Shown: piece by piece, positions 13,925 through 55,411 of the stretch
Position numbering within the stretch: the first letter of the stretch is position 1
Layout: every line of letters starts with the position of its first letter
Assembly (NCBI GenBank): GCA_964428355.1
Contig: CAYRYU010000009.1
Span: 13,043-77,042 of the forward strand
Reading direction: 5' to 3'
Length of the DNA stretch: 64,000 bases
Origin: an uncultured bacterium
Lineage (GTDB): Bacteria > Muiribacteriota > Ozemobacteria > Ozemobacterales > Ozemobacteraceae
Program-made: the position numbers and the translations under genes
Notes under the pieces: model-generated
The model's database searches: none
The model's input: the letters and a program-made list of their open reading frames with translations, nothing else
What the model was told of the DNA's origin: nothing

Positions 13925-14719
13925 TTGAAACGACGGGTCTTCTCGCTGATGATGTCGGTCGTCGTTTTGGCCGCCTCCGCCGTCTTGGGAGGACCATACG
14001 GGTCTGAACGACAATCCCCCTCCCTTGAGACGCTTCATCTCAACGACGCCATCCGGGCAGGAAAGACCGGCGAGGTCCGGGCTCTCCTCGACCAGGGAGC
14101 CGATGTCAACGCCCTCTTCGACATCGACGGCCCCCCCCTCCACGTCGCGGTCCGGGCGAGAGAGAGCCAGGGAGAAACGATCGCTTCGACCGCGGCCAAG
14201 CGCGCACACATCGAGGTCGTCCTTCATTACCTCGACGAAAAGATTTTCCGGCCCGATGATTCGGACGGTCGGGGGGTTCCCATAATCCATCACGCGGTCA
14301 TTTCCAATTCCCCCGCCCTGCTGAAAGCGCTAGCTTCCGCGGGGGCCGATCTGAACCGCAGGGAAAAGTGGCAAGGCTACACGCCCCTCCTGCGGGGTAT
14401 CGCGGCCGGAATGAAAGACGCAACATACTGCCTCATCGACCTCGGAGCCGATCTGAACGCCTCCGCCAGGGGAGGGGCAGTTTCCCCCCCGGAGGAGGAA
14501 GGACGCACCCCCCTTCACCTTGCCGCGCTCATCCACGACGTGCAACTGGTGCAACGCCTGCTTGACCGCGGGGCAGACCCCAACGTCCGGAACGGGGCGG
14601 GGAAAACCCCTCTGGGGGTAGCGAAGGAGTTCCGGAAGAGGAGGACCTCGTTCTTCCGCTGGAAATCGGAGTATGACGGAGTGATATCGCTCCTGAAGAA
14701 CCGGGGCGGAGTTGAATGA
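13925..14719 (+). CDS. Exported ankyrin-repeat protein (signal peptide plus ~6 ANK repeats)
   Basis: N-terminal hydrophobic signal (MKRRVFSLMMSVVVLAASAVLG) followed by ANK motifs (…TPLHLAA…G…LL..GAD.N…). Confidence 0.8.
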   Translation: MKRRVFSLMMSVVVLAASAVLGGPYGSERQSPSLETLHLNDAIRAGKTGEVRALLDQGADVNALFDIDGPPLHVAVRARESQGETIASTAAKRAHIEVVLHYLDEKIFRPDDSDGRGVPIIHHAVISNSPALLKALASAGADLNRREKWQGYTPLLRGIAAGMKDATYCLIDLGADLNASARGGAVSPPEEEGRTPLHLAALIHDVQLVQRLLDRGADPNVRNGAGKTPLGVAKEFRKRRTSFFRWKSEYDGVISLLKNRGGVE

Positions 14720-37420: not shown

Positions 37421-38539
37421 ATGAAGACGCGACGCGTTTTCCTGCTCCTGTTTGTTCTTTTGGGAACAGCCTGGGCGAATGACTTCGAATCATGGTTAGA
37501 AAAGGCGCAAGAGGGGGATGATTGGGCGCAATACCAGGTTGGGTGTTTCTATCTGGGCTGGCGTGGTATCCCAAAAGACGAAAGGAAGGCCGCATTCTGG
37601 CTGGAAAAATCCGCCGCCCAGGGAAATGCCTATGGAATCGAAGCCCTCGCGGATCTCTATCTCGAAGGAGGAAAAAACCTTCCGAAAAACCCCGCGAAAG
37701 CGATGGAGCTTTTCGAAAGCATCCTGAACCTGAGTCCGGAAGATCTTCAAGCACATCCGGACTACGGTCAGCTGATCATTCCGGTCTTGTTCCGGACGGC
37801 AATGGTCTATGCATCGGGGGAGGGAGGAGTTCCGACAAACCCCGGGGAAGCGATCTCACGTCTCAAGAAGGGGGCGTCGCAGGGGGACGCGAGTTCGGCC
37901 TTCTTCCTGGGATTGGCATATCTGAATGGTTTTGGGGGCTGTCGGAGCGACCTGGCTGCGCTATTCGCCTTCCAGGACGCCCAAAAGGGCCGAAGCCTGA
38001 TCAAAACGGGGAGAGACTTCATTCCCCTTTACCTGGGAACGATGTATGCCGAGGGTCGGGGCACCCAGAAAGATGAGCAGAAAGCTCTTGACCTTTGGAT
38101 GAAATCTGCGAAAGAGGGTTTTGTGCCCGCAATGCGTCTCCTGGCGAAAACCTTTCGCGAAGGAAAGCTGACCCAAAAAGACGGTCAGGAGGCGGTCAAA
38201 TACTACACAATGGGAGCGGTCCGGCGGGATCTCGAATCGATGTATTGCCTCGGAGAAATGTACTTTTCCGGGACGGAAATCCACCAGGATTTCGAAGAGG
38301 CAGGTTTCTGGTGGTACAATGGTTTCTTCCTCGAAGACCCGAAATGCACCGCGGCATTCGAGAGTTTGTCGGGTACCCTTGATGAATCAAGCCGGCGAGG
38401 GATAATGACCAGATCCGATAACTGGCGAGCCAAGTGCGAAAAGGAGAAGAGACCCTGGTGGGTCCCAATTCCGGCTCTCGTGCAGGAGGAAGAAAGAGAA
38501 TCCAACCTGGTCCGGATCTTCGGAGGGAAGATCTACTGA
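37421..38539 (+). CDS. Secreted Sel1-like (TPR-family) repeat protein
   Basis: Signal peptide MKTRRVFLLLFVLLGTAWA, GGAGG Shine-Dalgarno. At least five Sel1-type repeats (…A.YYLG.MY..G.GV..D..KA..W..KAA.QG…). Confidence 0.8.
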   Translation: MKTRRVFLLLFVLLGTAWANDFESWLEKAQEGDDWAQYQVGCFYLGWRGIPKDERKAAFWLEKSAAQGNAYGIEALADLYLEGGKNLPKNPAKAMELFESILNLSPEDLQAHPDYGQLIIPVLFRTAMVYASGEGGVPTNPGEAISRLKKGASQGDASSAFFLGLAYLNGFGGCRSDLAALFAFQDAQKGRSLIKTGRDFIPLYLGTMYAEGRGTQKDEQKALDLWMKSAKEGFVPAMRLLAKTFREGKLTQKDGQEAVKYYTMGAVRRDLESMYCLGEMYFSGTEIHQDFEEAGFWWYNGFFLEDPKCTAAFESLSGTLDESSRRGIMTRSDNWRAKCEKEKRPWWVPIPALVQEEERESNLVRIFGGKIY

Positions 38540-39088
38540 AAATCCCGGTCTCGGGGAGGCCACACTCTCCATTCGGATGTTGGCCGCCATCCCGCGGCCG
38601 GTAGGTTCTTTTCAGTTGCCCTTGTTTTCGAGACAATCGGGAGCATGCTCCCCAAACGAAGCGCCCCAAGTCCCATCCAGACCGGACAAGAGGGCTCTTT
38701 CCCCCCCTCCCTTGGCAAACGATGAGGGAAGAGCCCCGGGAAGCTTGATTCCTCGCAGTCCAAAAGGCTTCTTCTTCCGGAAGGCGGCGGAATTCTGGAG
38801 AGCAGGATGCAAAGCGGGGACGCATTCGGATTCAGAAGGTTCGCGCACCTGTGCCGTTCGTTGAAGGACCTTCCGACTGCAACATGTCTCCCTTCATCTC
38901 GTCAGATTCGGAACGAAACCTTGAAACCGCCGTTTCCGCAATTCCCGAATCGAACCCGGTCTGGGGGAACCATCCTCCCGTTCCCCTGTAAGGACGAACG
39001 ATTATGGTATCATTCCTGAAGATGGAAGGTACCCCTTCGAGAGGGTGAGACCCCGGGGATGCTAATCATCCCAAGCTGAGGAGGAACC

Positions 39089-42000
39089 ATGCGCAAGAGC
39101 CTTTTCGTCCTGATCTTCATCATTTCCGCCACCCTTCTTTTCCTCCAGGTGGGATGCAGGTTTTTCGGCCTTGGAACGGTCGACCAGGAGATTGCCCTTT
39201 CCCCCGAAAGCCTTGCCCGTGAGGACGGACACGCGCGGGTTTCATTCAAGATCGTCCTGCCTGGGGCTCCGAAGAATTCCCCCAGCCCCGCGGTCCGCGC
39301 TTCGGCCGGAACGGCCTCGATCACCTTCCGACTGACCCTTCTCGACGCAGGAAATCCTCTCGCTTCCCCAACCACCCTTGTAAAGTGGGCGCTGGTAGAC
39401 TCTTCGGGAACCGCCAGCATCGTTTTTTCCGATCTGCCTATCCGAACAGTGGTCGGGGAAATGATCGTGTTCGGAGGTTCGATCGGAGGCCGAACGAACT
39501 TCCACGGAGGCGCGGACCTCATCGACGGAGACAACGAAATCGAACTGAGTCCCCAGGGTTCCGGCCATCGTTCGGACGTCCTGGCCCAGGTCATCCTCCA
39601 GATCGCGGCGATTCCGGAGATGCTGATCCGGCTTCCACACAACCTGGCTGCCTCAGTCATGAATGCCGGCGCAGGTTATCTTGACCCTGGAACGAACATG
39701 CTGACAGCTTCTCCGACCGCGGGCCTCTTTACCGAGATCGTCGACCGCGTACTCACGGCGGGGGTTTCAGCACCCACCTACACCCGGATCGCCATGTCCG
39801 ACGGTGGAATGTCCATCCAGGGCAGCGGACCGGCAACCTGGACCAGGGCGACCTCCCAGATCTGGGGGGGAACGCCGCACGCAGTCGAGTTCTTCCGCGC
39901 CACCCGGATCCTTCGCCACGGTTTCGGGGGATTCGGGTACGTTCTTTGGGAAAGCGGCGCGGGTAACCGGTTCGGCCTCACGCGGATCGACTCCTCGACC
40001 GGGGACCTCCTCAACTACCTTGTCCTGGATGGCTCTCCCGGCCCCTGCGCCCCGATGCCCGATGACGGGCTACTGATCGGGGGGAGCATGGACTCCCTCC
40101 CGCTTCTGGTCCGCTGGACCGGACGTGAAAACGCATTTCTGACTCCCTCCTCTCTTTCTTCATTCTCAAAAGCATGGGCCCATTCGTTTTCGGAAGTGAA
40201 ACCGGACGTGAAGATCCCCGAGCCGGGGGTGGATTTCCTGCTTTTCCAGCCCGGGTCCGAACGAATCTACTGCGGGGTCTGTGATCCCAGGACTGGTCAG
40301 ACCAGGCATTTTGCGGTCGACCCCTCGAACGGGAAACCGGATCCCGAGGAAAGTCATGGAATCCCCATCTGGGCGACCCCCTCGGACCGTGAAGTAATCG
40401 TCTTCTGGGAAACGGGGGCCGGGGTCGTTTCCAGCAACCTCTACTGGGCAACCCAACCATTCGACCTTCCTTCCCCACTGGCGACAAAGGTCGATGGAGC
40501 CGTTTCCCCCTTCCATCACCAGGGACTCGACAACGGAAGGGCATACTACTACCGTGTCACCACGATCGATGGAGGGGGTCTCGAGTCAGCTCCCTCGTCA
40601 ACAGTAACATCGGTCCCCGGGGACAACACGCCCCCCATCGTCACAGAAGTATTCCCGGCCGAGAACGCCTTGGAAGTCCCTGTGGAAACCACCATCGGGG
40701 TCATTTTCAGCGAATCCATGGACGGGGCGACCCTTGTCCCGGGAAGCATAACCCTTTGCAGCGGAACCGCATGCATCCCTGGCAATGTGACATTCGGGCC
40801 GGGAGCCACCAACGCCACCTTCACTCCCGACGCGGCACTGGCCTACAACACCACCTATACCGCCACCATCGGCCTTGGAGTCAAGGATCTCGCGGGGAAT
40901 CCCCCTGCTGCCGAAAAGTCCTGGAGCTTCACGACCCGCAACGTTCCCGATACAACACCCCCGATCGTGGTTTCCATGACTCCCGCTTCGGGGGCGGGAG
41001 GAATATCGACCGGGACATCGGTTACCATGGGTTTCAGCGAGCCGATGGACCCCTCTTCACTTTCCACCTCGACGATTTTCCTGGCAAGCGGGACAAAGGT
41101 CTTTCAGGGCCTCATAACCGTCAGCCCCGACCTAACGGTCGCGACCCTCACCCTGGAGTTTCCCCTCGCATATTCCGCACAATACAGGATGACGGTAAAG
41201 GGAACGGTCGCGGACATTGCTGGGAACCAGATGGGATCAGACCATTCCTGGATTTTCTCCACCGTCCCAGCCCCCGACACCGTTCCACCAGTGATCACGA
41301 CGATCGATCCGCCCGAAAACGCGATCGAAGTCGGAATCGGAAAGGTGATCACGGTCGGTTTCAGCGAGCCGATGGATGCCTCGACCCTGGTACCCGGCAA
41401 CCTCTCCCTTGCAAGCGGGTCCACCGAACTCGATGGGACCGTGAGCGTAAGCCCGGACCTTTCCACAGCCACTTTCACCCCAGCGGCACCCCTCGAAACC
41501 GGAACAACCTACACCTTTACCGTCGGAAGTTCCGCCAGGGATCTCGCCGGCAACGGGCTTTCACAACCCCGGAAATGGAACTTCACGACATCGGCCGATC
41601 CCGATACCACACCCCCCACTATCGTTTCAGTTTTCCCTGAAGAGAACTCGATCGATTTTCCGGCAACAGGGGTGATCGCTGTCCGCTTCAACGAACCTAT
41701 CGAGGCCCCTTCGCTTTCCTCCGGAACCTTCATCGTCTCCGATGGAGCGAGCCCTGTCCCGGGCGCAATCCTTCTCGGTCCCGACCGGACGATGGCTACC
41801 TTCACACCCACAAGCCCCCTTCCATCGGGAAGACAACTTTCGGTCACAGTCACGACGGGTGTTAAGGACTCTTCCGGAAATGCGCTTTCAAAGGAGAAAA
41901 CCTGGACATTCACGACGATCCATGCCTCGGATACCACCCCCCCGACGGTCGTTTCCGTCTCTCCCCTCGAGAACTCGACAGGAATCGGCACCCAGAGTCT

Positions 42001-45000
42001 GCTCATCATCTCTTTTAGCGAGGCTCTGGAACCTTCCTCGGTATCCACGATTTCGGTGATTCTCTCCAGCGGCGCAACCGGAATCGACGGGGCGGTAACC
42101 CTGGCCTCCGGCGGAACCCTCGTGACCTTCGTTCCTGCCGCCCCCCTCGCATATTCGGTTCAGTATTCCGCGAGAGTGAAGTCCGGGATCCGGGATCTGG
42201 CAGGGAACCATCTGGAGGCTGAAAAAACCTGGGACTTTACGACCATCGCAGTTTCCGACACGACCCCGCCCACGGTGGTGGAGGTCTTCCCCTCCGAGAA
42301 CGCGGTCCTCGTTTCGACGGGAACGGTTGTTTCCGTAACGTTCAACGAACCGATGGACCTTTCCACCCTCTCGACGGAGACCGTGACCCTTTCCAGCGGT
42401 TCCATCCCGGTCGCGGGAACGTTGTCCTTCAGCGGGGACAGGATGACGGCAACCTTCACCCCGTCCGCTTCGCTCGCAGCTGAAACCAACTTTACCGCTA
42501 CCGTGAAAACCGGCGTCAAGGACGAAGCGGGAAATTCCATCCAAGCGGTGAAATCCTGGACTTTCACCACCGCTCCGGTTCCCGACACAACTGCCCCGAC
42601 GGTTCTTTCGGTCGATCCCGCGGAGAATTCCACCGATCAGGGAATCGGCCGGGTGATCACTGTTTGCTTTTCGGAGCCCATGGACCAGACGACGATATCC
42701 ACATCGACTTTCAGCCTGGCGAGCGGTTCGGTCCCGGTTGCCGGAACGATCACGATCGGCACCGACGGAGCCTGCGCCACGTTCACCCCAGACCTGCCTT
42801 TGGAATACGGCTCGGCCTATACGGCATCGGTCACGACTGGAGTCCGTGACCTCGCAGGGAACCCACTCCAGGCATCCAAGGTGTGGTCCTTCACGACCTC
42901 GACCGTGACGGACACCACCCCGCCCGTGGTTGTTTCGGTTCTTCCGTCGGAATCCGCCGAAGGATGCGAGATCGGAACGAAGCTGACGATCACGTTCAGC
43001 GAAGGAATGGATCCCACGTCGATCTCATCCGCCAGCATCACCCTTGCGAGCGGAACCACCGATATCCCGGGAACGCTTTCCATCAGCCCGGACCGGACGA
43101 TCGCCACCTTCAGCCCGGATTCCCCGCTGGATTACGTCACAACCTACACTGCCACCGTGAAAACTACCGCCCGTGATGTGGCGGGAAACCCGCTGGCCGC
43201 AGAAAAAGCATGGAACTTCACCACCAGGACCCCGGATCTGGCACCCCCCACGGTGGTCTGGGTCCTTCCAGCGGAAAATGCGGTCGGAGTGGCCACCCAG
43301 ACCGCGCTGTGCATCAGCTTCAGTGAAGCGATGGACCCCACCTCGCTTTCAACGGCAACCATCAGCCTTTCCAGCGGGGTTCAGGGAATCGAAGGCTCGG
43401 TAACCGTTTCGCCGGATGGGACCATGGCCACCTTTACCCTGCTCGCCGCGCTCGATTACTCGTCGACCCTTTCTGCCGCAATCGGGACGGGAGCCAGGGA
43501 TCTTGCAGGGAACCCCCTCTCCGCCCCGAAAGCATGGGTTTTCAGCACGATGCCCGCCCCCGACACGATTCCGCCCTCGGTCACCTCGGTGGCTCCGGCA
43601 AGCGGCGCGATGGATGTCCCCCTTTCATCCGCCCTCTTCATGGAATTCAGCGAACCCATCGCGTCCTCTTCCCTCGCCTCGGCGGTTTCACTCGTAAGGG
43701 TTTCCGACGGTATGCCGGTGCCGCTCGATCAGCCGACATTCGGTTCAGGATATCTCCTTGCGACGATCACAATTGGAGAAGAGCTCATCCGTTCGAAGGA
43801 ATACGAGATAAGGGTTTCGGGCCTCCGCGACCTCGCGGGAAATTCCCAGACCCTGGATTTCGTCAGTCGTTTCGATACCGTCAACGACCGGTTCGAGGAC
43901 AACGGGACGGCTTCCACCGCAGCAACGCTCGTGGGAACGCTGGGAGATCTTTCTATCAAGCCCGCTGGGGAATTCGACTGGTTCAGGCTCACTCTGGCAA
44001 CGCATTCGGGCCTCGTCATCGAAACCGACGGCGAGGGTGGAGGGGATTCCTTGCTGGCCCTCTATTCGGATCCTTACTCATCCCCGGTCGCTTACGATGA
44101 CGACGGGGGACCGGGCAACTACTCCCGGATCAGCCTTTCCTACCTGGCGAAGGGAACCTACTTCGTTAAGGTCTGGTGCTATTCTTCCTCGGCCGAAATC
44201 GCGAGCTACCAGGTCTCCCTGACGACTTCGGTCCATCTCCCGACCGTGGATTCGACCGTCCCCGCTAGCGGGGCAACCGGTTTCCCGGCCACCTCGCCGG
44301 TTACGATAACCTTCGTCGAGCCGATGGATCCTTCTTCAATCATCCCTGCGAACATCACCCTCTCTTCGGGAACCGCAGACCTGCCGGGAACGATTACGTT
44401 GGCCCCCGACAATCGAACCGCCACCTTCACCCCGACTTCTATGCTTCCGAGTCTTTCGCTGATCACGCTGAAAATCGGAACCGGGGTCAAGGACGAGGAA
44501 GGGAACGCCCTCGCTTCAGACGACATCCGAACCTTCACCACCGCCGCACCGGATTCCACGGGCCCCGCTGTCGTGGAAACAACTCCTGGAAGCGGCTCGA
44601 CCGGAATATTCCTCGATTCATCGCTCACGATTGGGTTCAGCGAATCCATGGATGCGTCGACCATTGCACCAGGGGTGACACTTGTCCGGGTTTCCGACAG
44701 CAGCCCGGTCCTCCTTTCGGATCCGGTTTTCAACGGATCGAAAACCGTCGCCACCTTGACTCCGGCCACCGCCCTCGCCGGGTCGACCGAATACGAGGCG
44801 CGGATTTCCGGATGCAAGGACCAATCAGGTCTTTCCCTGGCTTCCGATTCGGTCTGGCGTTTCACGACCATGCCGCAATACGATCCCCTCGAACCGAACG
44901 ATACCTGGTCCAGAAGCGCATCCATCACGGGGACGATCGGAAGTCTTTCCATGCAACCCGCGGGGGATTATGACTGGTTCAGGTTTGACGTGGACTCGAT

Positions 45001-47194
45001 ATCCCACGTGGTGCTCGAGACTGCGGGAACACCCGGTGGGGACACCGTCCTGACTCTCTTCTCGGATCCGCTCGGAACTTCCATCTTCGAAAACGACGAT
45101 AACGGAGCCAACGCGTATTCCAGGATCGATCTGGCGGAACTCGAGGCCGGGACTTTCTATGCGAGGGTGCGATGCTTCAGTTCCTCCGCCCAGATCTCAA
45201 GCTACCAGCTCGCGCTGTCCGTGGCCTCCAATCCGCCCCGCATCGTCACGGCAATCCCGGCGAGCGGGTCGACCGACGTCGCGGCGACTTCGGCGGTAAC
45301 AATCACTTTCAGCGAACCGATGAATCCCCTGACGTTGACCACCACGAACATCGTCCTGAAACAAGGCGGAACGGACATTCCGGGCGCAATCAGCGTCGGG
45401 AACGGAAACCGGACAGCCACTTTCACCCCGGATTCCCCTCTTCCCCACACCGCGACATTCACGGTCACCGTCAAGACCGGAGTCGAGGATGCGGAAGGGA
45501 CGGCGATGGCTTCGGAAACGACATGGGACTTCTCGACCCCGGATCAGACTCCTCCATCAATCGTGTCAGTTTCACCAGCCGAGAACGCTTCCGGAATCCT
45601 CGCGAAGACCTCCGTCGGAGTCGTCTTCAGCGAACCGATGGACGCGAGCACCCTGAGCACTTCGAATTTCGCACTCGCAAGCGGAACGACCGGCATCAGC
45701 GGGACCATTGCATTCGGAGTCGATCGAACGACAGCGACATTCACCCCGGCTTCACCCCTTCCCTACCAGGCAATAATTACTGCCACGGTGAAAACCGGTG
45801 TGAAGGATAATTCAGGAAACCATCTCCAGGCGGAAAAAACCTGGGACTTCTCTACGGCTTCCGCCGACAACGAACCGCCGCTTCTGCTTTTCCTGAACCC
45901 TGCTTCAGGGTCCATGAATATCGCTTCGAATGTCGTCATCGGAATCGTCTTCGACGAACCGGTTGCGACATCGACGTTGAACGGAACGAACATCATCGTA
46001 TCGAGCGGAGGAACGAACATTCCCGGGACAATAACCTTCACGGGGAACGGTATGAACGCTACGTTCACGCCCGCCGGCCCCCTGCCATACGCCACCATTT
46101 CGGTAACCATAGGTACCGGGGTGACGGACCTGAACGGAAACCCCATGGCGGAGCAACAGAGCTGTGGATTGATGGTCATACCCAGGTTCGTCGCCGTGGA
46201 TGGAGGGCTCAACCATGCAATATTCCTGATGGAAGACGGCACCGTCTGGACCGTCGGAGACAACAACTGTGGACAACTCGGAATGAGCGGCCTGACGATC
46301 ACGCGGACCCAGCTGGTGAAAGCATACATCGACGATGCGATTGCCGTATCCGCCGGGGAATACGCTTCTTACGCCATCAAATCGGACGGAACCCTATGGG
46401 CCTGGGGAGACAATCAGTCCGGCTGCATAGGAACCAGCCCCTATGAATTCGTTCCAACACCCCTGCAAGTGGGCTTGTCAAACGTCAGGCAGGTTTATTC
46501 CGGAGGTGGGAAGCACGTGTTGGCCGTTCTTCAGGATGGAACCGTCTGGTCCTGGGGAGAGAACTCCTATGGACAACTTGGCGATGGAACGCTACTTCCA
46601 CACGGCACCCCGGAACAGGTGATCAACCTAACCGATGTGGTCGCTGTTTCCGCGGCAGGCGATTTGTTTTCGGCGGTGTCGTTCGCATTGAAAAGTGACG
46701 GAACGGTCTGGTCCTGGGGCCTGGGGGTCGCCACTCCCACCCAGAACGCAAGCCTCTCGGGAATCGTTTCCATAGTCGCTTCTTATAAAGCCTCGGGCGG
46801 GGTATATGCCCTGAAAAGTGACGGGACAGTCCTGGATGGCTCGGGAGCTTCCCTGGGAATTTCCCCGATAAGATCGATTTCCAGTGACCGCACATCGTTC
46901 GGAGATCACGTCATCGCCCTCAAGCCCGATGGGACCCTTATGGGAATGGGGAGCAACTCATGGGGGCAGTTGGCCGATAATCCCGGAGCAAGTTCGTTCT
47001 TCCCCATCAATTCGATTTCCGATATCGGGATAATCGGGTGTGGTGATTCCCGAAGTTACTGCATCGACAAGAATGGACTTGGATGGGGGTTTGGCGAAAA
47101 CGGGTATGGTGAACTGGGCATCGGAAACAAGGTCGATACTGGGACCCCAACCATGATCGTCTGGCCGTCATATTTTTACATCCACGGGAATTAG
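39089..47194 (+). CDS. Giant (2701-aa) secreted adhesin-like protein: signal peptide, N-terminal region with an FN3-like module, ~15 tandem Big_5/SbsA Ig-like repeats, two PPC (pre-peptidase C-terminal) domains and a C-terminal RCC1-type beta-propeller
   Basis: GAGGAGG Shine-Dalgarno plus ATG 39089. Repeats of DTTPPTVVSV.P.EN……I.FSEPMD.S.LS……L.SG….PGT….D..TATFTP…L….YTATVK.GVKD.AGN.L…K.W.FTT. PPC motifs (EPNDT…G.I….GDYDWFRF…LyD……DD.G……AGTYYv.V). RCC1 repeats (…DGTVWSWG.N.YGQLG.G…) at aa ~2385–2701. Confidence 0.85.
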   Translation: MRKSLFVLIFIISATLLFLQVGCRFFGLGTVDQEIALSPESLAREDGHARVSFKIVLPGAPKNSPSPAVRASAGTASITFRLTLLDAGNPLASPTTLVKWALVDSSGTASIVFSDLPIRTVVGEMIVFGGSIGGRTNFHGGADLIDGDNEIELSPQGSGHRSDVLAQVILQIAAIPEMLIRLPHNLAASVMNAGAGYLDPGTNMLTASPTAGLFTEIVDRVLTAGVSAPTYTRIAMSDGGMSIQGSGPATWTRATSQIWGGTPHAVEFFRATRILRHGFGGFGYVLWESGAGNRFGLTRIDSSTGDLLNYLVLDGSPGPCAPMPDDGLLIGGSMDSLPLLVRWTGRENAFLTPSSLSSFSKAWAHSFSEVKPDVKIPEPGVDFLLFQPGSERIYCGVCDPRTGQTRHFAVDPSNGKPDPEESHGIPIWATPSDREVIVFWETGAGVVSSNLYWATQPFDLPSPLATKVDGAVSPFHHQGLDNGRAYYYRVTTIDGGGLESAPSSTVTSVPGDNTPPIVTEVFPAENALEVPVETTIGVIFSESMDGATLVPGSITLCSGTACIPGNVTFGPGATNATFTPDAALAYNTTYTATIGLGVKDLAGNPPAAEKSWSFTTRNVPDTTPPIVVSMTPASGAGGISTGTSVTMGFSEPMDPSSLSTSTIFLASGTKVFQGLITVSPDLTVATLTLEFPLAYSAQYRMTVKGTVADIAGNQMGSDHSWIFSTVPAPDTVPPVITTIDPPENAIEVGIGKVITVGFSEPMDASTLVPGNLSLASGSTELDGTVSVSPDLSTATFTPAAPLETGTTYTFTVGSSARDLAGNGLSQPRKWNFTTSADPDTTPPTIVSVFPEENSIDFPATGVIAVRFNEPIEAPSLSSGTFIVSDGASPVPGAILLGPDRTMATFTPTSPLPSGRQLSVTVTTGVKDSSGNALSKEKTWTFTTIHASDTTPPTVVSVSPLENSTGIGTQSLLIISFSEALEPSSVSTISVILSSGATGIDGAVTLASGGTLVTFVPAAPLAYSVQYSARVKSGIRDLAGNHLEAEKTWDFTTIAVSDTTPPTVVEVFPSENAVLVSTGTVVSVTFNEPMDLSTLSTETVTLSSGSIPVAGTLSFSGDRMTATFTPSASLAAETNFTATVKTGVKDEAGNSIQAVKSWTFTTAPVPDTTAPTVLSVDPAENSTDQGIGRVITVCFSEPMDQTTISTSTFSLASGSVPVAGTITIGTDGACATFTPDLPLEYGSAYTASVTTGVRDLAGNPLQASKVWSFTTSTVTDTTPPVVVSVLPSESAEGCEIGTKLTITFSEGMDPTSISSASITLASGTTDIPGTLSISPDRTIATFSPDSPLDYVTTYTATVKTTARDVAGNPLAAEKAWNFTTRTPDLAPPTVVWVLPAENAVGVATQTALCISFSEAMDPTSLSTATISLSSGVQGIEGSVTVSPDGTMATFTLLAALDYSSTLSAAIGTGARDLAGNPLSAPKAWVFSTMPAPDTIPPSVTSVAPASGAMDVPLSSALFMEFSEPIASSSLASAVSLVRVSDGMPVPLDQPTFGSGYLLATITIGEELIRSKEYEIRVSGLRDLAGNSQTLDFVSRFDTVNDRFEDNGTASTAATLVGTLGDLSIKPAGEFDWFRLTLATHSGLVIETDGEGGGDSLLALYSDPYSSPVAYDDDGGPGNYSRISLSYLAKGTYFVKVWCYSSSAEIASYQVSLTTSVHLPTVDSTVPASGATGFPATSPVTITFVEPMDPSSIIPANITLSSGTADLPGTITLAPDNRTATFTPTSMLPSLSLITLKIGTGVKDEEGNALASDDIRTFTTAAPDSTGPAVVETTPGSGSTGIFLDSSLTIGFSESMDASTIAPGVTLVRVSDSSPVLLSDPVFNGSKTVATLTPATALAGSTEYEARISGCKDQSGLSLASDSVWRFTTMPQYDPLEPNDTWSRSASITGTIGSLSMQPAGDYDWFRFDVDSISHVVLETAGTPGGDTVLTLFSDPLGTSIFENDDNGANAYSRIDLAELEAGTFYARVRCFSSSAQISSYQLALSVASNPPRIVTAIPASGSTDVAATSAVTITFSEPMNPLTLTTTNIVLKQGGTDIPGAISVGNGNRTATFTPDSPLPHTATFTVTVKTGVEDAEGTAMASETTWDFSTPDQTPPSIVSVSPAENASGILAKTSVGVVFSEPMDASTLSTSNFALASGTTGISGTIAFGVDRTTATFTPASPLPYQAIITATVKTGVKDNSGNHLQAEKTWDFSTASADNEPPLLLFLNPASGSMNIASNVVIGIVFDEPVATSTLNGTNIIVSSGGTNIPGTITFTGNGMNATFTPAGPLPYATISVTIGTGVTDLNGNPMAEQQSCGLMVIPRFVAVDGGLNHAIFLMEDGTVWTVGDNNCGQLGMSGLTITRTQLVKAYIDDAIAVSAGEYASYAIKSDGTLWAWGDNQSGCIGTSPYEFVPTPLQVGLSNVRQVYSGGGKHVLAVLQDGTVWSWGENSYGQLGDGTLLPHGTPEQVINLTDVVAVSAAGDLFSAVSFALKSDGTVWSWGLGVATPTQNASLSGIVSIVASYKASGGVYALKSDGTVLDGSGASLGISPIRSISSDRTSFGDHVIALKPDGTLMGMGSNSWGQLADNPGASSFFPINSISDIGIIGCGDSRSYCIDKNGLGWGFGENGYGELGIGNKVDTGTPTMIVWPSYFYIHGN
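40650..46200 (+). repeat. Intragenic tandem array of ~300-bp units encoding Ig-like (Big_5) domains, interrupted by two PPC-domain inserts
   Basis: About 15 protein-level repeats are visible. The DNA units are diverged but recognisable (…gataccaccccccc…gtttc…ttcagcgagccgatgga…). Boundaries are approximate. Confidence 0.7.
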
Positions 47195-47327
47195 GCGGAA
47201 GCCCTCAAAGGAAGGCGGACTCACGGGAGTTCCCAAAAACGGTTGCATATCCCGGGGGTTTGGGAGACAATTTGACCCTCAATACGGGTCGGGGATTCAC
47301 CCTCTCCCGAAAAATCAGGAGATATTC

Positions 47328-48140
47328 ATGAAACCTTCGGTTGTACTGTCGCTGCTTTTCGTCCTGACAATCGGGCTTATGCCGGTTCTCGCGGACGGGG
47401 GAATGGAAAGACCCCTGACGGAACAGGAAAAGACCTTCTTCCAGTCGGCCTACCAGGCCGGGGTCGGTTTCTTGCCCCCAGCCCCCGCCGGTTGGAACAA
47501 GGATGTCGAGGAGATCTCCATCCCCTCGCGGTTGAGCCAGGGTGTGGAGCCACCTCCCTTGCCCATGACCATCCGGTGCGAATATGCAAAGCCCATGGAT
47601 CAATCGAAAGCCTTCGATATGGCCAACAACGCAGGTTCCATGGAAGCGCTTGGCGAAACCGTCAACAAGCTGAGCGAGCAGCTGCAAGCCGCCGCGGCCA
47701 AAGGCGACCAGAAGGAAATGGCCCGGCTCCAGGAAGAGATGCAAAAGGCGGTAACCGGAAACGCGGGAGTCCAGAAAGCCCAGGCAATTGCCAAGGAAAA
47801 CGAGCTGAACAACGCCCATATCTCCATCGATTTCAACGCGAACGGGGTGGATTATTCCCAGGTCAAAGAGATACCCGCTCCCGCACCCGCCTTCGGGGCA
47901 ATCCGGATGGACCAATCCACCAACCCACAATTGTCGGGGAATGGAACCACATGGGTTTTCCTGGGACCGTTTTCCAAGAAGGGCTCGGGAGACTCTTTCC
48001 AGATCTACACCACCAGTAAGTCCGGCAAGGGAACCGACATAACCCGGATCATCATCCAGATAAGGGCCGACGGCAAGGTCGCGGATGACCTCCTGGCAAA
48101 AATGGACCTGAAGGGTCTTGCTGGGCTGATAAAGCAATGA
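47328..48140 (+). CDS. Hypothetical secreted protein (signal peptide, Ala/Gln-rich coiled-coil-like middle region)
   Basis: 270 aa. AGGAG Shine-Dalgarno, MKPSVVLSLLFVLTIGLMPVLA signal. No recognised family. Confidence 0.6.
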   Translation: MKPSVVLSLLFVLTIGLMPVLADGGMERPLTEQEKTFFQSAYQAGVGFLPPAPAGWNKDVEEISIPSRLSQGVEPPPLPMTIRCEYAKPMDQSKAFDMANNAGSMEALGETVNKLSEQLQAAAAKGDQKEMARLQEEMQKAVTGNAGVQKAQAIAKENELNNAHISIDFNANGVDYSQVKEIPAPAPAFGAIRMDQSTNPQLSGNGTTWVFLGPFSKKGSGDSFQIYTTSKSGKGTDITRIIIQIRADGKVADDLLAKMDLKGLAGLIKQ

Positions 48141-48150
48141 TGCCGAGGAA

Positions 48151-49542
48151 GTGAACTCCGTGGAAATGCGGCCTTCATTCCTCGATTCATCAAGCCTCTC
48201 GCTCCTGGTGTCCGCCCTCGAAAGGCTCGGGGATGGATTCGCCCGCCTTCCGGACGCCGGAAAACCTCTCCCGGAAATGGAAAAGGCGGGGCCAATACTT
48301 TTGGAAGTCGCCGAGCGGTTGAAGGACAACTTTCCCTACTTCCATCCCCTCTACGCGGGTCAGATGCTCAAACCCCCGCACCCGATCGCGCGGCTCGCCT
48401 ACTTCCTTGCAATGTGGATAAACCCCAACAACCATGCACTGGACGGAGGCCGAGCCAGCTCGGCGATGGAAAAGGAAGCGGTGGCGCAGCTGGCCGGTAT
48501 GTTCGGGTGGGACGAGCATTTGGGACACCTTTGCGGCGGTGGGACCATGGCGAACCTCGAAGCGCTTTGGATCTCGGGCCAGATCAATCCCGGACGCAAG
48601 GTGGTGGCGTCATCCCAGGCACATTACACCCATTCCCGGATAAGCGGAGTCCTCAAGCTGGATTTCGAAACCCTCCCTTGTGACGGGAAGGGGCGAATGG
48701 ATGTTTCAGCACTGAAAGAACGCCTTCGAAAGGGCGGAGTCGGCACCGTTGTCGCGACGATCGGAACCACCGCAACCGGCTCCGTGGATCCGCTCCCCGA
48801 GATATTGGATCTGAAAAAGGAGTTCGGATTCAGGCTTCACGCGGATGCAGCTTACGGAGGCTATTTCCGACTGGTCGGAAACCTCGGGGAAGCGACGAAA
48901 GCCTCGTTTCGAATGCTCTCCGAAGTCGACTCGCTCGTGATCGACCCTCACAAGCACGGCATGCAACCCTACGGATGCGGGTGCGTCCTGTTCCGGGATC
49001 CGAGCGTCGGCCGTTTCTACAAGCATGATTCCCCCTATACCTATTTCAGCTCCAGGGATCTCCACCTGGGCGAGATCAGCCTCGAATGCTCCCGACCCGG
49101 GGCCGCCGCGGTCGCCCTGTGGGCCACGCAGAAACTCCTTCCACTCGTGCCCGAAGGGGATTTCGCCCGAATGCTGTCGGCATCGAGGGCCGCTGCTGTC
49201 GAATTCCACCATCTCCTGGCGGAGGACCCCCTCTTCCTCCCGGCGTTTCCCCCCGAACTCGATATCGTCACCTGGATTCCGCGGGCAACAACCGTGCGTG
49301 AGGCATCGGAGAAGTCCCAACGGATCTTCATCGAAGCCGGGAAACGGGATCTCCACCTTGCGCTCGCCACCCTCCCGACATGCTTTTTCGACCTGCAAAA
49401 AGCCGGCATCGAGTCGGACCGGGACACGGTAACCTGCTTCCGCTCAGCATTGATGAAACCCGAACACAAGGAATGGCTCCCCCGAATCCTCGCCCTTCTG
49501 CGTGAAAGCTCCGTCCCCAAAACAGGAGCATCCCCAAAATAG
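48151..49542 (+). CDS. PLP-dependent group II amino-acid decarboxylase (MfnA/tyrosine-aspartate decarboxylase-like)
   Basis: …HLCGGGTMANLEALWI…, …FRLHADAAYGGY…, and the PLP-lysine motif DPHKHGMQPYGCGCVLFRD. The start could be GTG 48160 rather than 48151. Confidence 0.75.
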   Translation: MNSVEMRPSFLDSSSLSLLVSALERLGDGFARLPDAGKPLPEMEKAGPILLEVAERLKDNFPYFHPLYAGQMLKPPHPIARLAYFLAMWINPNNHALDGGRASSAMEKEAVAQLAGMFGWDEHLGHLCGGGTMANLEALWISGQINPGRKVVASSQAHYTHSRISGVLKLDFETLPCDGKGRMDVSALKERLRKGGVGTVVATIGTTATGSVDPLPEILDLKKEFGFRLHADAAYGGYFRLVGNLGEATKASFRMLSEVDSLVIDPHKHGMQPYGCGCVLFRDPSVGRFYKHDSPYTYFSSRDLHLGEISLECSRPGAAAVALWATQKLLPLVPEGDFARMLSASRAAAVEFHHLLAEDPLFLPAFPPELDIVTWIPRATTVREASEKSQRIFIEAGKRDLHLALATLPTCFFDLQKAGIESDRDTVTCFRSALMKPEHKEWLPRILALLRESSVPKTGASPK

Positions 49543-50385: not shown

Positions 50386-50997
50386 ATGGGTACTGACGTT
50401 GCATCTTTTGCCCGCCAGCTCAAGGAAGACGGAATCGAAGCCGCCAAAAAGGAAGCTGACAAGCTGATTGAAGCGGCCCGTGCAAAGGCGAAGGAGATCC
50501 AGGACGAGGCGAAAGCCTCCATCTCCAGGATGGAAAAGGAAGCCCAGGAACAGATCGACCGGGACCGGAAGAAAGCCGAGGCAGATCTGAAGCTGGTGGG
50601 CCGCGATCTCGTATTGGGAGTCCGGAAGACCATTGAGGAGACCGCGGCAGCGTTGCTCAAGCAGTCGGTTTCCAAAGCACTTTCGACTGAAGACACCGTC
50701 AAGACAGGTCTCCTCGAGCTCCTGAAAACCCAGAAAACTGGCCGGGAGTGGGAATTGGCGCTTGGTCCCACGGTCGGAAAGAAGCTTGCCACGACGGTTG
50801 TGGAAGACCTTTTCAAACAGGCCGGAGCTTTGGCAAAGCTGAAATCCGCCCTGGAAAAAGAAGGTTTTCAGCTGACATCGAAGGGCGGAACCGAGGTTAT
50901 CGAGGTCACCGAAGATTCGGTGGTGGAGGCATTCCGAAGACTCCTTTCCCCCGAACTTGCCATTATCCTGGGCCAGAAAACCCCTGCCGCCAGGTGA
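50386..50997 (+). CDS. atpE: V/A-type ATPase subunit E
   Basis: 203 aa with an N-terminal coiled coil rich in A/K/E (…AKKEADKLIEAARAKAKEIQDEAK…) and a globular C-terminus. First gene of the operon. Confidence 0.75.
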   Translation: MGTDVASFARQLKEDGIEAAKKEADKLIEAARAKAKEIQDEAKASISRMEKEAQEQIDRDRKKAEADLKLVGRDLVLGVRKTIEETAAALLKQSVSKALSTEDTVKTGLLELLKTQKTGREWELALGPTVGKKLATTVVEDLFKQAGALAKLKSALEKEGFQLTSKGGTEVIEVTEDSVVEAFRRLLSPELAIILGQKTPAAR

Positions 50998-51005
50998 GCT
51001 GACCC

Positions 51006-51755
51006 GTGTCGAATCCCCTCTATTTCATTCTTTCGACCCTTCCTTCCCTTCCCCAGATCGGGGAATCGCCTCCGATATCCGTCGAGGAAGGGCTTCGACA
51101 CCTTCGGGATGAAAAGAACCCTGCATTGGACATCTTTGCCGGGGCAATCGCCCTTGAAGAACAGCTTATGGGATTCATCAAGTCCCGCCTCGGAAAACCC
51201 GACCCACAAAATGTCGCATCCATCCCACCCCAGGATTTCCCCGCCGGGGTCCGTGAAAAATGTGAAGCGGACCCGGTGGAAACGGGCGAGGTTGCATGGA
51301 TTGAAACGATATGGAATTCATACCTGGTCTTCCTTTCAGAGGCTGGAAAACGGATGGGTTCACCGCTTCTTTCCTCCTGGGCACGTTTTGAGCATGACCT
51401 CCGAGAAAAGCTCGCGGAAACCCGCATCAAGGAATCCAGGGCCCCCTCCGAAGGCGATGGGATAGGGGGTTCTTCGGCTCCCAAAGAGGGTTTTCTGCTG
51501 CGCCCAAGCGCCAGGGAATCCGATTCCGATCTTGAAAAGGTTGTCCTGGAGTGGTCTTCCGCCCGTGATCCGATGGCGGCAGAACAACTCCTTGACCAGG
51601 CCAGATCACATTTCATCAACAGGCTAACCACACGGTACTCGTTTTCCCTCGACGAGATCGTCGCATATTTTCTCAATCTTCGCCTGCTTCACCGGTATTC
51701 CTCCCTCGACCGTGAGTCGGGCTTGAAAATCCTTCAGGAGGTCACGGCGCTGTGA
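51006..51755 (+). CDS. DUF2764-family protein (V-ATPase subunit C/d stand-in typical of Bacteroidetes/Chlamydiae/Spirochaete-type operons)
   Basis: N-terminal LYFILSTLPSLP resembles the DUF2764 start YYYLVASLPEL. Its position between E and A is conserved. Confidence 0.6.
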   Translation: MSNPLYFILSTLPSLPQIGESPPISVEEGLRHLRDEKNPALDIFAGAIALEEQLMGFIKSRLGKPDPQNVASIPPQDFPAGVREKCEADPVETGEVAWIETIWNSYLVFLSEAGKRMGSPLLSSWARFEHDLREKLAETRIKESRAPSEGDGIGGSSAPKEGFLLRPSARESDSDLEKVVLEWSSARDPMAAEQLLDQARSHFINRLTTRYSFSLDEIVAYFLNLRLLHRYSSLDRESGLKILQEVTAL

Positions 51756-53473
51756 GCTTGAGCGGACAAATCGTCACCGTTTACGGAAACATGGTGACTG
51801 CCGAATTCGACGGGAACATCAGGCAGAATGCGGTCGCCTATTGTCATCGTTCCGACGGGGTGAAACTGATGGCCGAGATCATCCGGGTCCGCGGAAACCG
51901 CGCCGACATGCAGGTTTACGAGCTGACCAGGGGACTCCGGGTGGGCGACAAGGTGGAAGTCACCGATTCCCTGCTCTCCCTCGAACTCGGGCCAGGTCTC
52001 CTCGGAAAGATATACGACGGCCTCCAGAACCCCCTCCCGCTCCTTGCCGAGAAGGTAGGGAAGTTCCTCACTCCAGGACACTATTTTCCCGCTCTCGATC
52101 GTTCGGTCGACTGGAAGTTCACCCCCATTGCAAAAGCGGGTGATACCGTTCGCGCCGCAGACAACCTGGGAAAGGTCCCCGAGGGTATCTTCGACCACTT
52201 CCTGATGGTTCCTTTCCAGCTGCAAGGGGAATGGAAGGTCAAGAGCATCGCGGGGCCGGGCACATACAAGGTCGATAGCGAAATCGCCGTCCTCGAAAGA
52301 GACGGGGAAACGCACCGGGTCACGATGATAAACCACTGGCCCGTCCGTCTTCCCCTTGGAATCTATTCGGAAAGATTGCTGCCCGTGCAGCCCCTGATCA
52401 CGAAACAACGGATCATCGACACCTTTTTCCCGATAATGCTGGGTGGAAGTTACTGTATCCCCGGCCCCTTCGGCGCGGGAAAGACGGTTCTCCAGCAGAT
52501 CACCAGCCGTCACGCGGAGATCGACATCGTCATCGTAGCCGCATGCGGCGAGCGGGCGGGCGAGGTCGTCGAAACCCTCCGGGAGTTTCCGCACCTCACC
52601 GACCCCCGCACCGGCAAAGCACTCATGGAGCGGACGATCATCATCTGCAACACTTCCAGCATGCCCGTTGCGGCGCGCGAATCGTCCGTGTATACCGCGG
52701 TGACACTCGGGGAATACTACCGCCAGAACGGTCTGAACGTCCTTCTCCTGGCCGATTCGACGTCCCGCTGGGCCCAGGCCCTTCGCGAGATGAGCGGGCG
52801 CCTCGAGGAGATCCCGGGGGAAGAGGCCTTCCCGGCATATCTGGAAAGCTCGATCGCCCGCTTCTACGAGCGCGGCGGGATCGTCCGCCTCCGGGACGGA
52901 CGTGTTGCCTCTCTCACAATCGGTGGAACGGTAAGCCCCGCCGGAGGGAACTTCGAGGAACCGGTTACCCAGGGCACCCTCAAGGTCGTCGGAGCATTCC
53001 TTGGACTTTCCTACGCCCGTTCCTATGCCCGCCGATTTCCCGCAATCGATCCCCTGGAATCATGGTCGAAGTACCGTGGGATCATAGATGCCCAGAAGGT
53101 CAGCTGGGCACATTCGTTCCTGAAACGTGGGAAGGGCGTCTTCGAAATGATGCAGGTCGTCGGCGAGGAGGGCACTTCTATGGAGGACTTCCTCGTCTAT
53201 CTGAAATCGGAGTTCCTCGACGCGGTTTACCTGCAGCAGAACTCCTTCGATGAGGTTGATGCGGCCTGCCCCATCGAGCGCCAGAAGAACCTCTTCGATA
53301 AGGTCTGCCAGGTCCTCGACCACGCCTTCAGCGTTACCGAAAAGGAACAGGCGCGGGACATCTTCTTCACCCTGACCGACCAGTTCAGGAACTGGAACTT
53401 CGCAAAACCAGGCAGCCCCGAAATGAAGAACGCCGAGGAAAAAATCGCCCAATGCCTGGGCAAGGGGAACTGA
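51752..53473 (+). CDS. atpA: V/A-type ATPase catalytic subunit A
   Basis: 573 aa with a GPFGAGKTV P-loop. GTG start overlapping the upstream stop. Confidence 0.95.
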   Translation: MSLSGQIVTVYGNMVTAEFDGNIRQNAVAYCHRSDGVKLMAEIIRVRGNRADMQVYELTRGLRVGDKVEVTDSLLSLELGPGLLGKIYDGLQNPLPLLAEKVGKFLTPGHYFPALDRSVDWKFTPIAKAGDTVRAADNLGKVPEGIFDHFLMVPFQLQGEWKVKSIAGPGTYKVDSEIAVLERDGETHRVTMINHWPVRLPLGIYSERLLPVQPLITKQRIIDTFFPIMLGGSYCIPGPFGAGKTVLQQITSRHAEIDIVIVAACGERAGEVVETLREFPHLTDPRTGKALMERTIIICNTSSMPVAARESSVYTAVTLGEYYRQNGLNVLLLADSTSRWAQALREMSGRLEEIPGEEAFPAYLESSIARFYERGGIVRLRDGRVASLTIGGTVSPAGGNFEEPVTQGTLKVVGAFLGLSYARSYARRFPAIDPLESWSKYRGIIDAQKVSWAHSFLKRGKGVFEMMQVVGEEGTSMEDFLVYLKSEFLDAVYLQQNSFDEVDAACPIERQKNLFDKVCQVLDHAFSVTEKEQARDIFFTLTDQFRNWNFAKPGSPEMKNAEEKIAQCLGKGN

Positions 53474-53476
53474 ACC

Positions 53477-54778
53477 ATGCGGAAATATTACACCAAGATC
53501 GATCGCATCGCCGGGAACGTCGCCACCCTGCAAGCTTCCGGAGTCGGCTACGAGGAGTTGGCCGTCGTCGAGGGGAAGTGGGGTTCCTCCCTCGGACAGG
53601 TAATCCGGGTTTCGGGGAGCGAGGCTTCCCTCCAGGTTTTCGCAGGGACGCGGGGCATCTCGACGGGCGACAAGGTAAGCTTCCTGGGCTCATCGATGCG
53701 GTTCAGCTTTTCGGAGAATCTGTTCGGCCGAATATTCACCGGTGGCGGTGAACCACGCGACGGTCGAAGCCCCCTCACCGGAAATCTCGTCGAGGTTGGA
53801 GGCCCGTCGGTCAACCCTGCGGTCAGGATCATGCCCCACCGTATGATCCCGACCAACATTCCGATGATCGATGTATTCAACACCCTGGTCGAAGGACAGA
53901 AACTTCCGATATTCTCGATCCCGGGCGAACCATACAACGAGGTCCTGGCCCGAATCGCGCTCCAGGCAGAGGCCGACGTGATTATTCTGGGTGGGATGGG
54001 CCTGAAATACGACGAATACCTGTATTTCAAAAACACCCTTGAGGCAGGCGGAGCTATGTCCCGCTCGATTCTTTTCATCCATACCGCCTCCGATCCCGTT
54101 GTCGAATGTCTTCTCACCCCCGACATCGCCCTCACCGTTGCCCAGGAATTTGCGGTGCAGGGAAAACGTGTGCTGGTACTCCTTACCGACGTCACGAACT
54201 TCGCCAATGCGCTCAAGGAGATCGCGATCACGATGGAGCAGATCCCCAGCAACCGCGGATATCCCGGGGATCTCTATTCCCAGCTCGCCGCAAGGTACGA
54301 GAAAGCGGTCGTTTTCGAGGAGGGTGGATCAATCACCATCATGGCGGTGACCACCATGCCCGGAGACGACGTCACACACCCCGTCCCCGACAACACCGGT
54401 TACATCACCGAAGGCCAGTTCTACCTCAAAGGCGGATGGATCGAGCCTTTCGGATCCCTTTCACGGTTGAAGCAGCTGGTGAACGGAAAGACACGGGATG
54501 ACCACCGGGCGATCATGGACGGTTGCCTCCAGCTCTACGCGAAGTGCCGCGAAGCGCGGGAGAAGCGTGCAATGGGTTTCGAGATGTCCCCCTGGGACCT
54601 GAAACTCCTGAACTACGGCGGCGAGTTCGAGAAGAAGATCATGGACCTGTCGGTCAACATCCCGCTCTCCGGAGCCCTCGATCTCTGCTGGAGGATCCTG
54701 GCGACCTTCTTCGAACCTCGGGAAACCGGAATCCGCTCCAACCTCTCGGAGAAATTCTGGCCAAAGAGGGTGGATTGA
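53477..54778 (+). CDS. atpB: V/A-type ATPase subunit B
   Basis: 433 aa. Typical B-subunit sequence with a degenerate P-loop region. Confidence 0.95.
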
Positions 54779-54784
54779 CCCGAA

Positions 54785-55411
54785 ATGTCATCCAAGCTCA
54801 AGAAAACGCGGCCCGAACTGCTCAAACAGCGAAGGGCGCTCACCCTCTTCAAGAGGTATCTTCCGACCCTGGTTCTGAAGAAACAGCAGATCCAGATGGA
54901 GATCCTGAAAGTCAGGACCGAGCGCGGCCGCCTTCTCGAGGAGATGAAGAAGCGCATTTCCAAGGTGGAGCGATGGGTTCCCCTGTTCAGCGAAATGATT
55001 CCCGGCCCGGTGACCGAGCTGGTGCGTGTGCGGTCGATACAACGGGGAGAGAAGAACGTCGCCGGGATCGTCCTGCCGACGGTCAAGGACGTTTCCTACG
55101 AAGTGAAGCCGTACAGCCGGTATTTCACGCCCCCATGGACCGACCTCGCCGTCGATTTCGTCAAGGCCCTCCTGGAACTTCGTGAACGCACGCGCATTCT
55201 GACCGAGCAAGAGCGCCTGCTCCAGGCGGAACTCCGGAAAGTTACACAGCGGGTGAACCTTTTCGAGAAGGTGATGATTCCGCGAACGGTCGAGAACACA
55301 CGCCTCATCCGGATCCATCTGGGTGAAGAACAGGTGGCCGGTGTCGGGCGCGCCAAGATTGCCAAATCCAAGACGGTCGAATCCCCCGCGGGGATGGAGG
55401 TCCAGTCGTGA
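54785..55411 (+). CDS. atpD: V/A-type ATPase subunit D
   Basis: 208 aa. …LLKQRRALTLFKRYLPTLVLKKQQIQMEI… coiled-coil rotor subunit. Confidence 0.9.
   Translation: MSSKLKKTRPELLKQRRALTLFKRYLPTLVLKKQQIQMEILKVRTERGRLLEEMKKRISKVERWVPLFSEMIPGPVTELVRVRSIQRGEKNVAGIVLPTVKDVSYEVKPYSRYFTPPWTDLAVDFVKALLELRERTRILTEQERLLQAELRKVTQRVNLFEKVMIPRTVENTRLIRIHLGEEQVAGVGRAKIAKSKTVESPAGMEVQS

Follow-up and report, generated by a model that had tools for sequence, protein, structure and literature searches.

A predicted 2701-residue lipoprotein with fifteen diverged Ig-like domains and a C-terminal RCC1-like propeller from an uncultured bacterium

What kind of protein carries a long row of immunoglobulin (Ig)-like repeats, two PPC domains and an RCC1 propeller behind one signal peptide, and is the gene that encodes it a stable one? 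This question is raised by a protein of 2701 amino acids (aa), whose gene is located on a stretch of 64,000 nucleotides from an uncultured bacterium (assembly GCA_964428355.1, contig CAYRYU010000009.1, positions 13,043 to 77,042; this whole stretch is referred to as the window). A preliminary description of the locus, made from the sequence, had presented the product as an unusual adhesin-like protein with a distal ligand-binding head, and the gene as one that is prone to changes in repeat number. Our analysis suggested, with moderate confidence, that the gene encodes a fibrillar protein with a lipid anchor at its N-terminus and a binding head at the distal end, and it corrects the idea that the gene is especially prone to changes in its repeat number. 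The attachment of uncultured bacteria to particles, partners or prey depends on large surface proteins with Ig repeats.

Domain order and predicted N-terminal anchor

Profile searches, in which domain calls were judged against the curated Pfam cut-offs (gathering thresholds), yielded an FN3-like domain followed by 10 Big_5 domains, a PPC domain, 2 Big_5 domains, a second PPC domain, 3 Big_5 domains and a 7-bladed RCC1-like propeller. The self-parse of the sequence, whereby the limits of the Big_5 units were taken from a phmmer self-search seeded with one repeat, is independent of Pfam and also led to 15 Big_5 units. Thus, the modular order given in the preliminary description was recovered almost exactly. 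The scores amounted to 986.8 bits for Big_5 (PF13205, cut-off 23.6, 15 stretches), 47.4 bits for PPC (PF04151, cut-off 25.9, 2 stretches), 180.2 bits for the RCC1-like domain WD40_RLD (PF25390, cut-off 150, 2 stretches), 102.5 bits for RCC1_2 (PF13540, cut-off 22, 3 stretches) and 73.6 bits for RCC1 (PF00415, cut-off 21.7, 2 stretches), so that the earlier PPC and RCC1 assignments hold at the Pfam thresholds. Weaker matches to Big_12, CopC and bMG1 were located inside the Big_5 repeat region and did not add a separate domain. The FN3-like unit, which had also been named before, was corroborated by a profile of the N-terminal region, positions 400-503 of which matched solved FN3 domains at 7.7e-9 to 1e-5. 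When compared with the PDB, the RCC1-like domain matched the RCC1-like domain (RLD) of HERC2, UVR8 and RCC1 at 5e-31 to 5e-26. It contains seven DG-x-[VL] blade motifs (aa 2383, 2433, 2483, 2537, 2583, 2614 and 2662), whereby blades 4-6 are shortened or degenerate. The two PPC copies are 46% identical to each other and both carry the typical D-x-D-W-F and D-D-x-G motifs; by sequence they found no match among solved structures. Both are internal, and thus do not occupy the C-terminal position known from secreted peptidase precursors. As had been stated for the peptidase domain, Pfam and NCBIfam detected neither a peptidase domain nor an enzymatic domain of any kind in the protein. Its Pfam matches furthermore do not include RTX/HemolysinCabind, the C-terminus being an RCC1 blade, nor Big_2 (PF02368), nor an SLH or any other wall-anchoring domain.

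The signal peptide was already recognised in the preliminary description, which left its type unstated. It is of the lipoprotein type and consists of MRK, a hydrophobic core and a lipobox-like LQVG-C23. In two alignments, Cys23 is invariant (24 of 24 and 36 of 36 homologues, respectively) and the preceding Gly22 at position -1 is conserved in at least 90%. Because of this invariant cysteine and the conserved glycine, the window protein and those homologues that share its N-terminal module (referred to as the N-module) are predicted to be lipoproteins. Since the invariant lipobox cysteine sets the anchor at the N-terminus, the C-terminal propeller would be the far end of the protein. This lends support to the idea of a distal head, for which we infer the binding itself. 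A motif C-x-[FL]-[FLW]-G recurs among the homologues, and the low predicted local distance difference test (pLDDT) values after the cysteine would fit a tether.

The approximately 400 residues between the signal peptide and the FN3 unit, which had been skipped in the preliminary description, define a protein family. The AlphaFold2 (AF2) model of this region on a 24-sequence alignment reached a pLDDT of 84.8 and a predicted template modelling (pTM) score of 0.80; the single-sequence prediction had a pLDDT of 33, and only the alignment-based model was used. It shows a signal helix (aa 2-25), a disordered tether (aa 24-43), a beta-sandwich (aa 49-155), a helical segment (aa 161-225), a beta-rich region with some 16 strands that might form a small propeller (aa 233-419), and the FN3 domain (aa 427-510). 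Conserved motifs of the N-module are DFHGAxDL, SPKGSG, ILRQGxG, GGTLxGxPxLFRW and VRDP. No Pfam or NCBIfam model covers the N-module (aa 45-425), and outside the FN3 part there is no sequence match to the PDB. A Foldseek comparison of the model with the PDB gave only low template modelling (TM) scores of 0.13-0.21, namely to ectodomains with propeller and FN3 domains (Sevenless, ROS1) and to Bacteroides sensor propellers. Thus, the N-module is a candidate new domain family.

Divergence of the repeats and integrity of the gene

The gene is a single uninterrupted open reading frame (ORF) and is real. Its in-frame GC content at third codon positions (GC3) is 0.69, similar to the adjoining genes. 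The strong ribosome-binding site and the intact ORF were counted for the lipid-anchored fibril as the best explanation. Overall, we regard the product as a real and intact lipoprotein of the surface type, which is familiar in kind but unusual in its length.

The preliminary description had assumed near-identical DNA units of about 300 bp, and had deduced from them a recombination-prone length variation of the gene. Neither of the two agrees with our data. The Big_5 repeat period is 327 bp, and in a codon-aligned comparison the units are pairwise 39-61% identical on the DNA level (mean 50%) and 26-54% on the protein level (mean 40%). The longest exact DNA word that any two Big_5 units have in common is 20 nt. 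Tandem Repeats Finder reported no array in the large gene, and the families of direct repeats amount to short motif matches with 60-83% identity across only 23-87 nt. Because the units are diverged and share at most 20 nt exactly, both recombinational length variation and a collapse of the assembly are unlikely. The Big_5 units are diverged and old, which fits a stable multi-Ig stalk better than a phase-variable one.

It might be suspected that the ORF is an assembly artefact, in which several shorter paralogous genes were collapsed or joined via their repeats, as the preliminary description had considered. The source is a metagenome-assembled contig, and the full 2701-aa protein forms a singleton cluster at 90% identity. 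However, exact identity between any two units extends over 20 bases at most, and with the mean DNA identity given above an assembler would find no stretch to collapse or to join wrongly. The reading frame, the GC3 and the domain phase continue without a break, and every unit is unique in sequence. Thus, the collapse of shorter paralogues is implausible, and we regard an artefact of this type as extremely improbable.

A comparison of R10-PPC1-R11 (aa 1492-1821) with R12-PPC2-R13 (aa 1822-2151) gave 45% identity, and the units that flank the PPC domains are closer to one another than to other units (R10-R12 42%, R11-R13 46%). Since R10 and R12 as well as R11 and R13 resemble each other most, the alignments indicate that a block of about 330 aa was duplicated long ago, whereby each PPC domain was copied together with its neighbours as one block. 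In this context, it could also be that the protein is processed or shed, with the PPC domains as cleavage points that release C-terminal fragments with Big_5 and RCC1 domains to the medium. The two PPC domains lie at the boundaries of the duplicated block and, according to the Pfam description of PF04151, PPC is removed after secretion in many peptidases. Yet the PPC domains are flanked by intact Ig-like domains within a protein that has no peptidase domain of its own, and domains of the PPC fold also act in binding, as in the collagen-binding domains of clostridial collagenases. Shedding is therefore very unlikely in our opinion. The PPC domains would most likely be accessory binding or spacer modules, probably stabilised by Ca2+, rather than peptidase prodomains.

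A constant N-terminal module with varying payloads

When aa 26-511 were compared exhaustively with 1.84 billion representative proteins by HMMER, 1693 matches resulted, of which 117 had E<=1e-30. Among the 150 best representatives, about 55 matched aa ~26-425 in full length, and in each case the match begins immediately behind a signal peptide at the N-terminus. With 23 N-module members, the window protein shares 25-36% identity across the whole module as well as all of the motifs. Word-index searches returned nothing for the single sequence of the N-terminal region, not even the sequence itself, and only 3 FN3 proteins for a 24-sequence profile; in both cases the index was swamped, so that the results have no bearing on absence. 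In a scan of species-representative genomes, which do not include the source genome, the only relative was a shortened or partial protein with 33% identity from a Candidatus Riflebacteria metagenome-assembled genome, and a scan of metagenome contigs found one locus. An exact look-up of the full window protein among called genes gave no match.

The Pfam analysis of 36 N-module members revealed a variety of payloads. RCC1, Glug and Big_7 were each found in 4 members, Kelch, Big_2 and CarboxypepD_reg in 3 members each, Big_5, PEBP and PKD in 2 members each, and NHL, SGL, SBBP, Cthe_2159, Flg_new and FGE-sulfatase in a single member each. Beta-propellers of five kinds occur in 10 of the 36. This variety is the pattern that would be expected from a constant anchor with swappable binding heads, and a constant, predicted lipidated base with variable stalk and head is the norm of the family. 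One of the RCC1 carriers, P0125 (2291 aa), combines this N-terminal module with several RCC1 propellers behind it. Its gene (locus L005, 5395-12270, on a Logan contig of SRR12133403) adjoins two T2SSE-type ATPase genes, and the contig has a GC content of 0.59, which is similar to the window. As P0125 originates from the same sequencing samples as the genome of the window (SRR12133403 and SRR12133404), the two proteins may be paralogues of a single organism. Neither P0123 nor P0125 has a gene neighbour in common with the window, so that no conserved operon partner emerged from their genomic contexts, and two further look-ups for such a partner were likewise without result.

The architecture of the window protein was called unusual in the preliminary description, which is overstated, since several related proteins (P0199, P0201, P0249, P0152 and P0070) likewise end in an RCC1 propeller that follows FN3 or Ig-like repeats. 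The same applies in part to the oddity that had been seen in PPC domains without a peptidase. Such architectures are not rare in Pfam, but a PPC domain is absent from all 273 relatives that were fetched. None of these 273 has more than a few Big_5 units, and the few N-module proteins with Big_5 domains in the exhaustive-search set carry at most 3 units. Thus, the domain combination of the window protein appears to be unique within the sampled relatives.

The arrangement that we favour builds on the domain parse and order, the anchoring cysteine, the conserved N-terminal family module and the diverged repeats, all of which were observed. The protein would be exported via Sec and then lipidated at Cys23, which would anchor it in the membrane. 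A flexible tether of about 20 residues would lead to the conserved base module of about 380 aa and to the FN3 domain, both near the membrane. These would be followed by a rigid stalk of 15 diverged Big_5 Ig-like domains with short proline-rich D-T-T-P-P linkers and two interruptions by PPC domains, which would carry the propeller approximately 80 nm outwards if fully extended, as estimated from typical Ig-domain and other domain sizes. The RCC1-like propeller would most likely be the ligand-binding head, and its target would be a protein or glycan that belongs to another cell or to a substrate. That RCC1-like propellers are protein-interaction platforms in solved relatives was counted for this role. 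A relationship of the organism to Candidatus Riflebacteria, a phylum described as diderm with an outer-membrane tethering of the OmpM type (bioRxiv 10.1101/2021.05.31.446380), is probable. The organism would then be a diderm as well, and the length of the fibril would argue for a display on the outer surface.

Several points weigh against this arrangement. In a diderm of this lineage, a lipoprotein of 290 kDa would need to be flipped to the surface, and no conserved neighbouring exporter gene is present in the two contexts examined (P0123 and P0125). The taxonomic link rests on the one partial relative with its 33% identity. The glutamine at lipobox position -3 is atypical and presumably falls outside the strict PROSITE pattern PS51257. 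None of the structural matches of the N-module is convincing, and its role as a base is therefore a conjecture. Surface exposure, lipidation, binding function and ligand are all features that we infer from the sequence.

It might be, for instance, that the protein is a periplasmic lipoprotein scaffold, which sits in the inner membrane or in the inner leaflet of the outer membrane and is folded back or runs along the wall instead of being displayed on the surface. In model diderms, lipoproteins mostly face the periplasm, neither a signal nor a partner for surface export was identified for the window protein, and the conserved hydrophobic RFFGLG after the cysteine is not known to match any surface-export motif. 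However, 15 Ig-like and six other domains would, if extended, far exceed the width of the periplasm, and the family carries payloads (Kelch, RCC1, NHL, PKD, Glug and the Listeria-Bacteroides repeat) of the type that is typically present in extracellular binding proteins. A periplasmic location is thus unlikely.

A further explanation would be a structural, S-layer-like coat of the envelope, in which the Big_5 array forms a lattice or a sheath rather than a ligand-seeking fibril. Big_5 was, according to InterPro, first noted in the S-layer protein SbsA, and another secreted protein, which has 4 Big_5 domains, is encoded 7 kb upstream on the opposite strand (Table 1). Yet no SLH or other wall-anchoring domain was found in the window protein or nearby, the lipid anchor and the terminal propeller better match a tethered fibril, and the free swapping of heads in the family would be unexpected for subunits that form a lattice. 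We consider such a coat quite unlikely. In this regard, the preliminary description had referred to an upstream SLH protein, from which it deduced a specialised envelope. A Pfam search of 40 ORFs from across the window gave no SLH match, and a rough SLH regular expression was also negative. Thus, the argument for a specialised envelope loses the neighbour on which it rested. Overall, none of the four alternatives, that is, periplasmic scaffold, S-layer-like coat, shedding and assembly artefact, is favoured over the lipid-anchored fibril.

Beyond the single protein, it is conceivable, and we put this forward tentatively, that the N-module defines a lineage-specific lipoprotein display system of Riflebacteria-like diderm Terrabacteria, in which the base would be recognised by a surface-export or docking machinery and the heads would be interchangeable. 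If so, heads of the RCC1, Kelch, NHL, PEBP, PKD and Glug type would be presented on stalks of very different length and would constitute a polymorphic repertoire for the recognition of partners, prey or substrates, with the window protein as the longest-stalk member so far. If surface exposure holds true, the N-module would provide a handle on lipoprotein display in diderm Terrabacteria. As a surface protein, the window protein is of an ordinary kind and adds little new in principle. What is new, to a modest extent, is the lipoprotein base module of about 380 aa, which had not been described before and carries many different binding heads.

Genomic surroundings and comparison with known systems

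The features of the gene and of its surroundings are listed in Table 1. No sigma-70-like site was found within 38400-48400, and sigma-54-like sites did not occur beyond chance, with none in the spacer upstream of the large gene. Rfam gave zero matches in the whole window. The downstream ORF of 270 aa may be co-transcribed with the large gene, and the minus-strand ORF that overlaps it looks spurious.

Table 1. Features of the large gene and of neighbouring loci in the window.
Feature	Coordinates	Strand	Remarks
Secreted Big_5 protein	29327-31705	-	792 aa, four Big_5 domains, ~7 kb upstream; Sec signal peptide MNRRFRMALFLAFLLAVTGFSPVSA, no lipobox
1659-aa ORF	31578-36557	+	Vps62 and DUF7910 matches
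218-aa ORF	36746-37402	+	no Pfam match
Sel1-repeat protein	37403-38539	+	
Non-coding spacer	38540-39088		549 nt, upstream of the large gene
Terminator-like hairpin	38578-38603		3' of the Sel1 gene, inside the upstream spacer
Shine-Dalgarno-like AGGAGG	39079..39084	+	read from sequence; 4 nt before the ATG at 39089
Large gene	39089..47194	+	2701 aa
Lipoprotein-type signal peptide	39089..39157	+	aa 1-23, MRKSLFVLIFIISATLLFLQVG-C23; Cys23 is the predicted lipidation site
Flexible tether	39158..39220	+	aa 24-44, opens with conserved RFFGLG; pLDDT <50 at aa 24-43
Conserved N-terminal module	39221..40363	+	aa 45-425
FN3-like domain	40367..40618	+	aa 427-510; profile and AF2 beta-sandwich
Big_5 R1-R10	40622..43879	+	aa 512-1597; mostly 109-aa period, each opening with D-T-T-P-P
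PPC domain 1	43880..44227	+	aa 1598-1713, Pfam core 1629-1695
Big_5 R11-R12	44228..44869	+	aa 1714-1927
PPC domain 2	44870..45223	+	aa 1928-2045
Big_5 R13-R15	45224..46174	+	aa 2046-2362
RCC1-like beta-propeller	46175..47191	+	aa 2363-2701, C-terminal, seven blades
Stop codon	47192..47194	+	
Overlapping ORF	47205-48329	-	
270-aa ORF	47328-48140	+	134 nt downstream of the large gene; signal peptide, GC3 0.72, no Pfam match
V/A-type ATPase operon	50386-57159	+	G/B-like stalk subunit, DUF2764, subunits A, B, D and I-like subunit
FG-GAP/VCBS-like protein	61534-62844	+	436 aa, beta-propeller

The window is unusually rich in eukaryote-like repeat or domain proteins (13925-14719, 14716-17385, 21463-23085, 31578-36557 and 37403-38539). 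These comprise two ankyrin-repeat proteins (in one of them, which is 889 aa long, Ank_2 matched about 11 stretches), a HEAT-repeat protein, the Vps62/DUF7910 ORF and the Sel1-repeat protein. Together with the RCC1 head, they hint at an interaction-rich lifestyle. The window further contains a V/A-type ATPase operon and a further beta-propeller protein.

With regard to known systems, the nearest logic is that of the Leptospira Lig lipoproteins and of the giant repeat adhesins, whereby the window protein is a member of neither group. LigA and LigB are surface adhesins with an N-terminal lipobox and 12-13 or more tandem Ig-like domains, and LigB has a non-repeat C-terminal domain. The combination of a lipobox and a long Ig array is common to both, and the resemblance is functional only. 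The repeats are Big_2 domains in Lig and Big_5 domains in the window protein, the lineage is also different, and the base module of about 380 aa, the two PPC domains and the RCC1 propeller set the window protein apart. RCC1-repeat lipoproteins have been annotated in Leptospira as well (PMC2387172).

The giant adhesins of the RTX/type I secretion system group, such as SiiE, LapA and MpIBP, have a cell-proximal anchor, a very long Ig-like stalk and distal ligand-binding modules in common with the window protein. However, they are secreted with the C-terminus first by a type I system, possess RTX repeats and are held by an N-terminal plug instead of a lipid. Environmental Big_5 proteins, which often have an Ice_binding (PF11999) or fn3 domain at their end, share the same stalk domain with 27-40% identity and the combination of a stalk with a terminal module, and P0070 joins Big_5 with RCC1. 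In contrast to the window protein, none of the best 120 relatives has a PPC domain and none reaches 15 repeats. With respect to the PPC/collagen-binding-domain fold of secreted peptidases, the two copies of the window protein pass the Pfam threshold, but they are internal, duplicated and without a peptidase. The propeller, finally, differs from its RCC1-like relatives in that blades 4-6 are degenerate and that it is predicted to be extracytoplasmic and is fused to a stalk, and there is no reason to expect a guanine nucleotide exchange factor (GEF) activity. What it shares with RCC1, the HERC2 RLD, UVR8 and BLIP-II are the seven blades and the RCC1 blade signature. RCC1-like propellers serve as protein-binding platforms, with BLIP-II as a secreted bacterial example.

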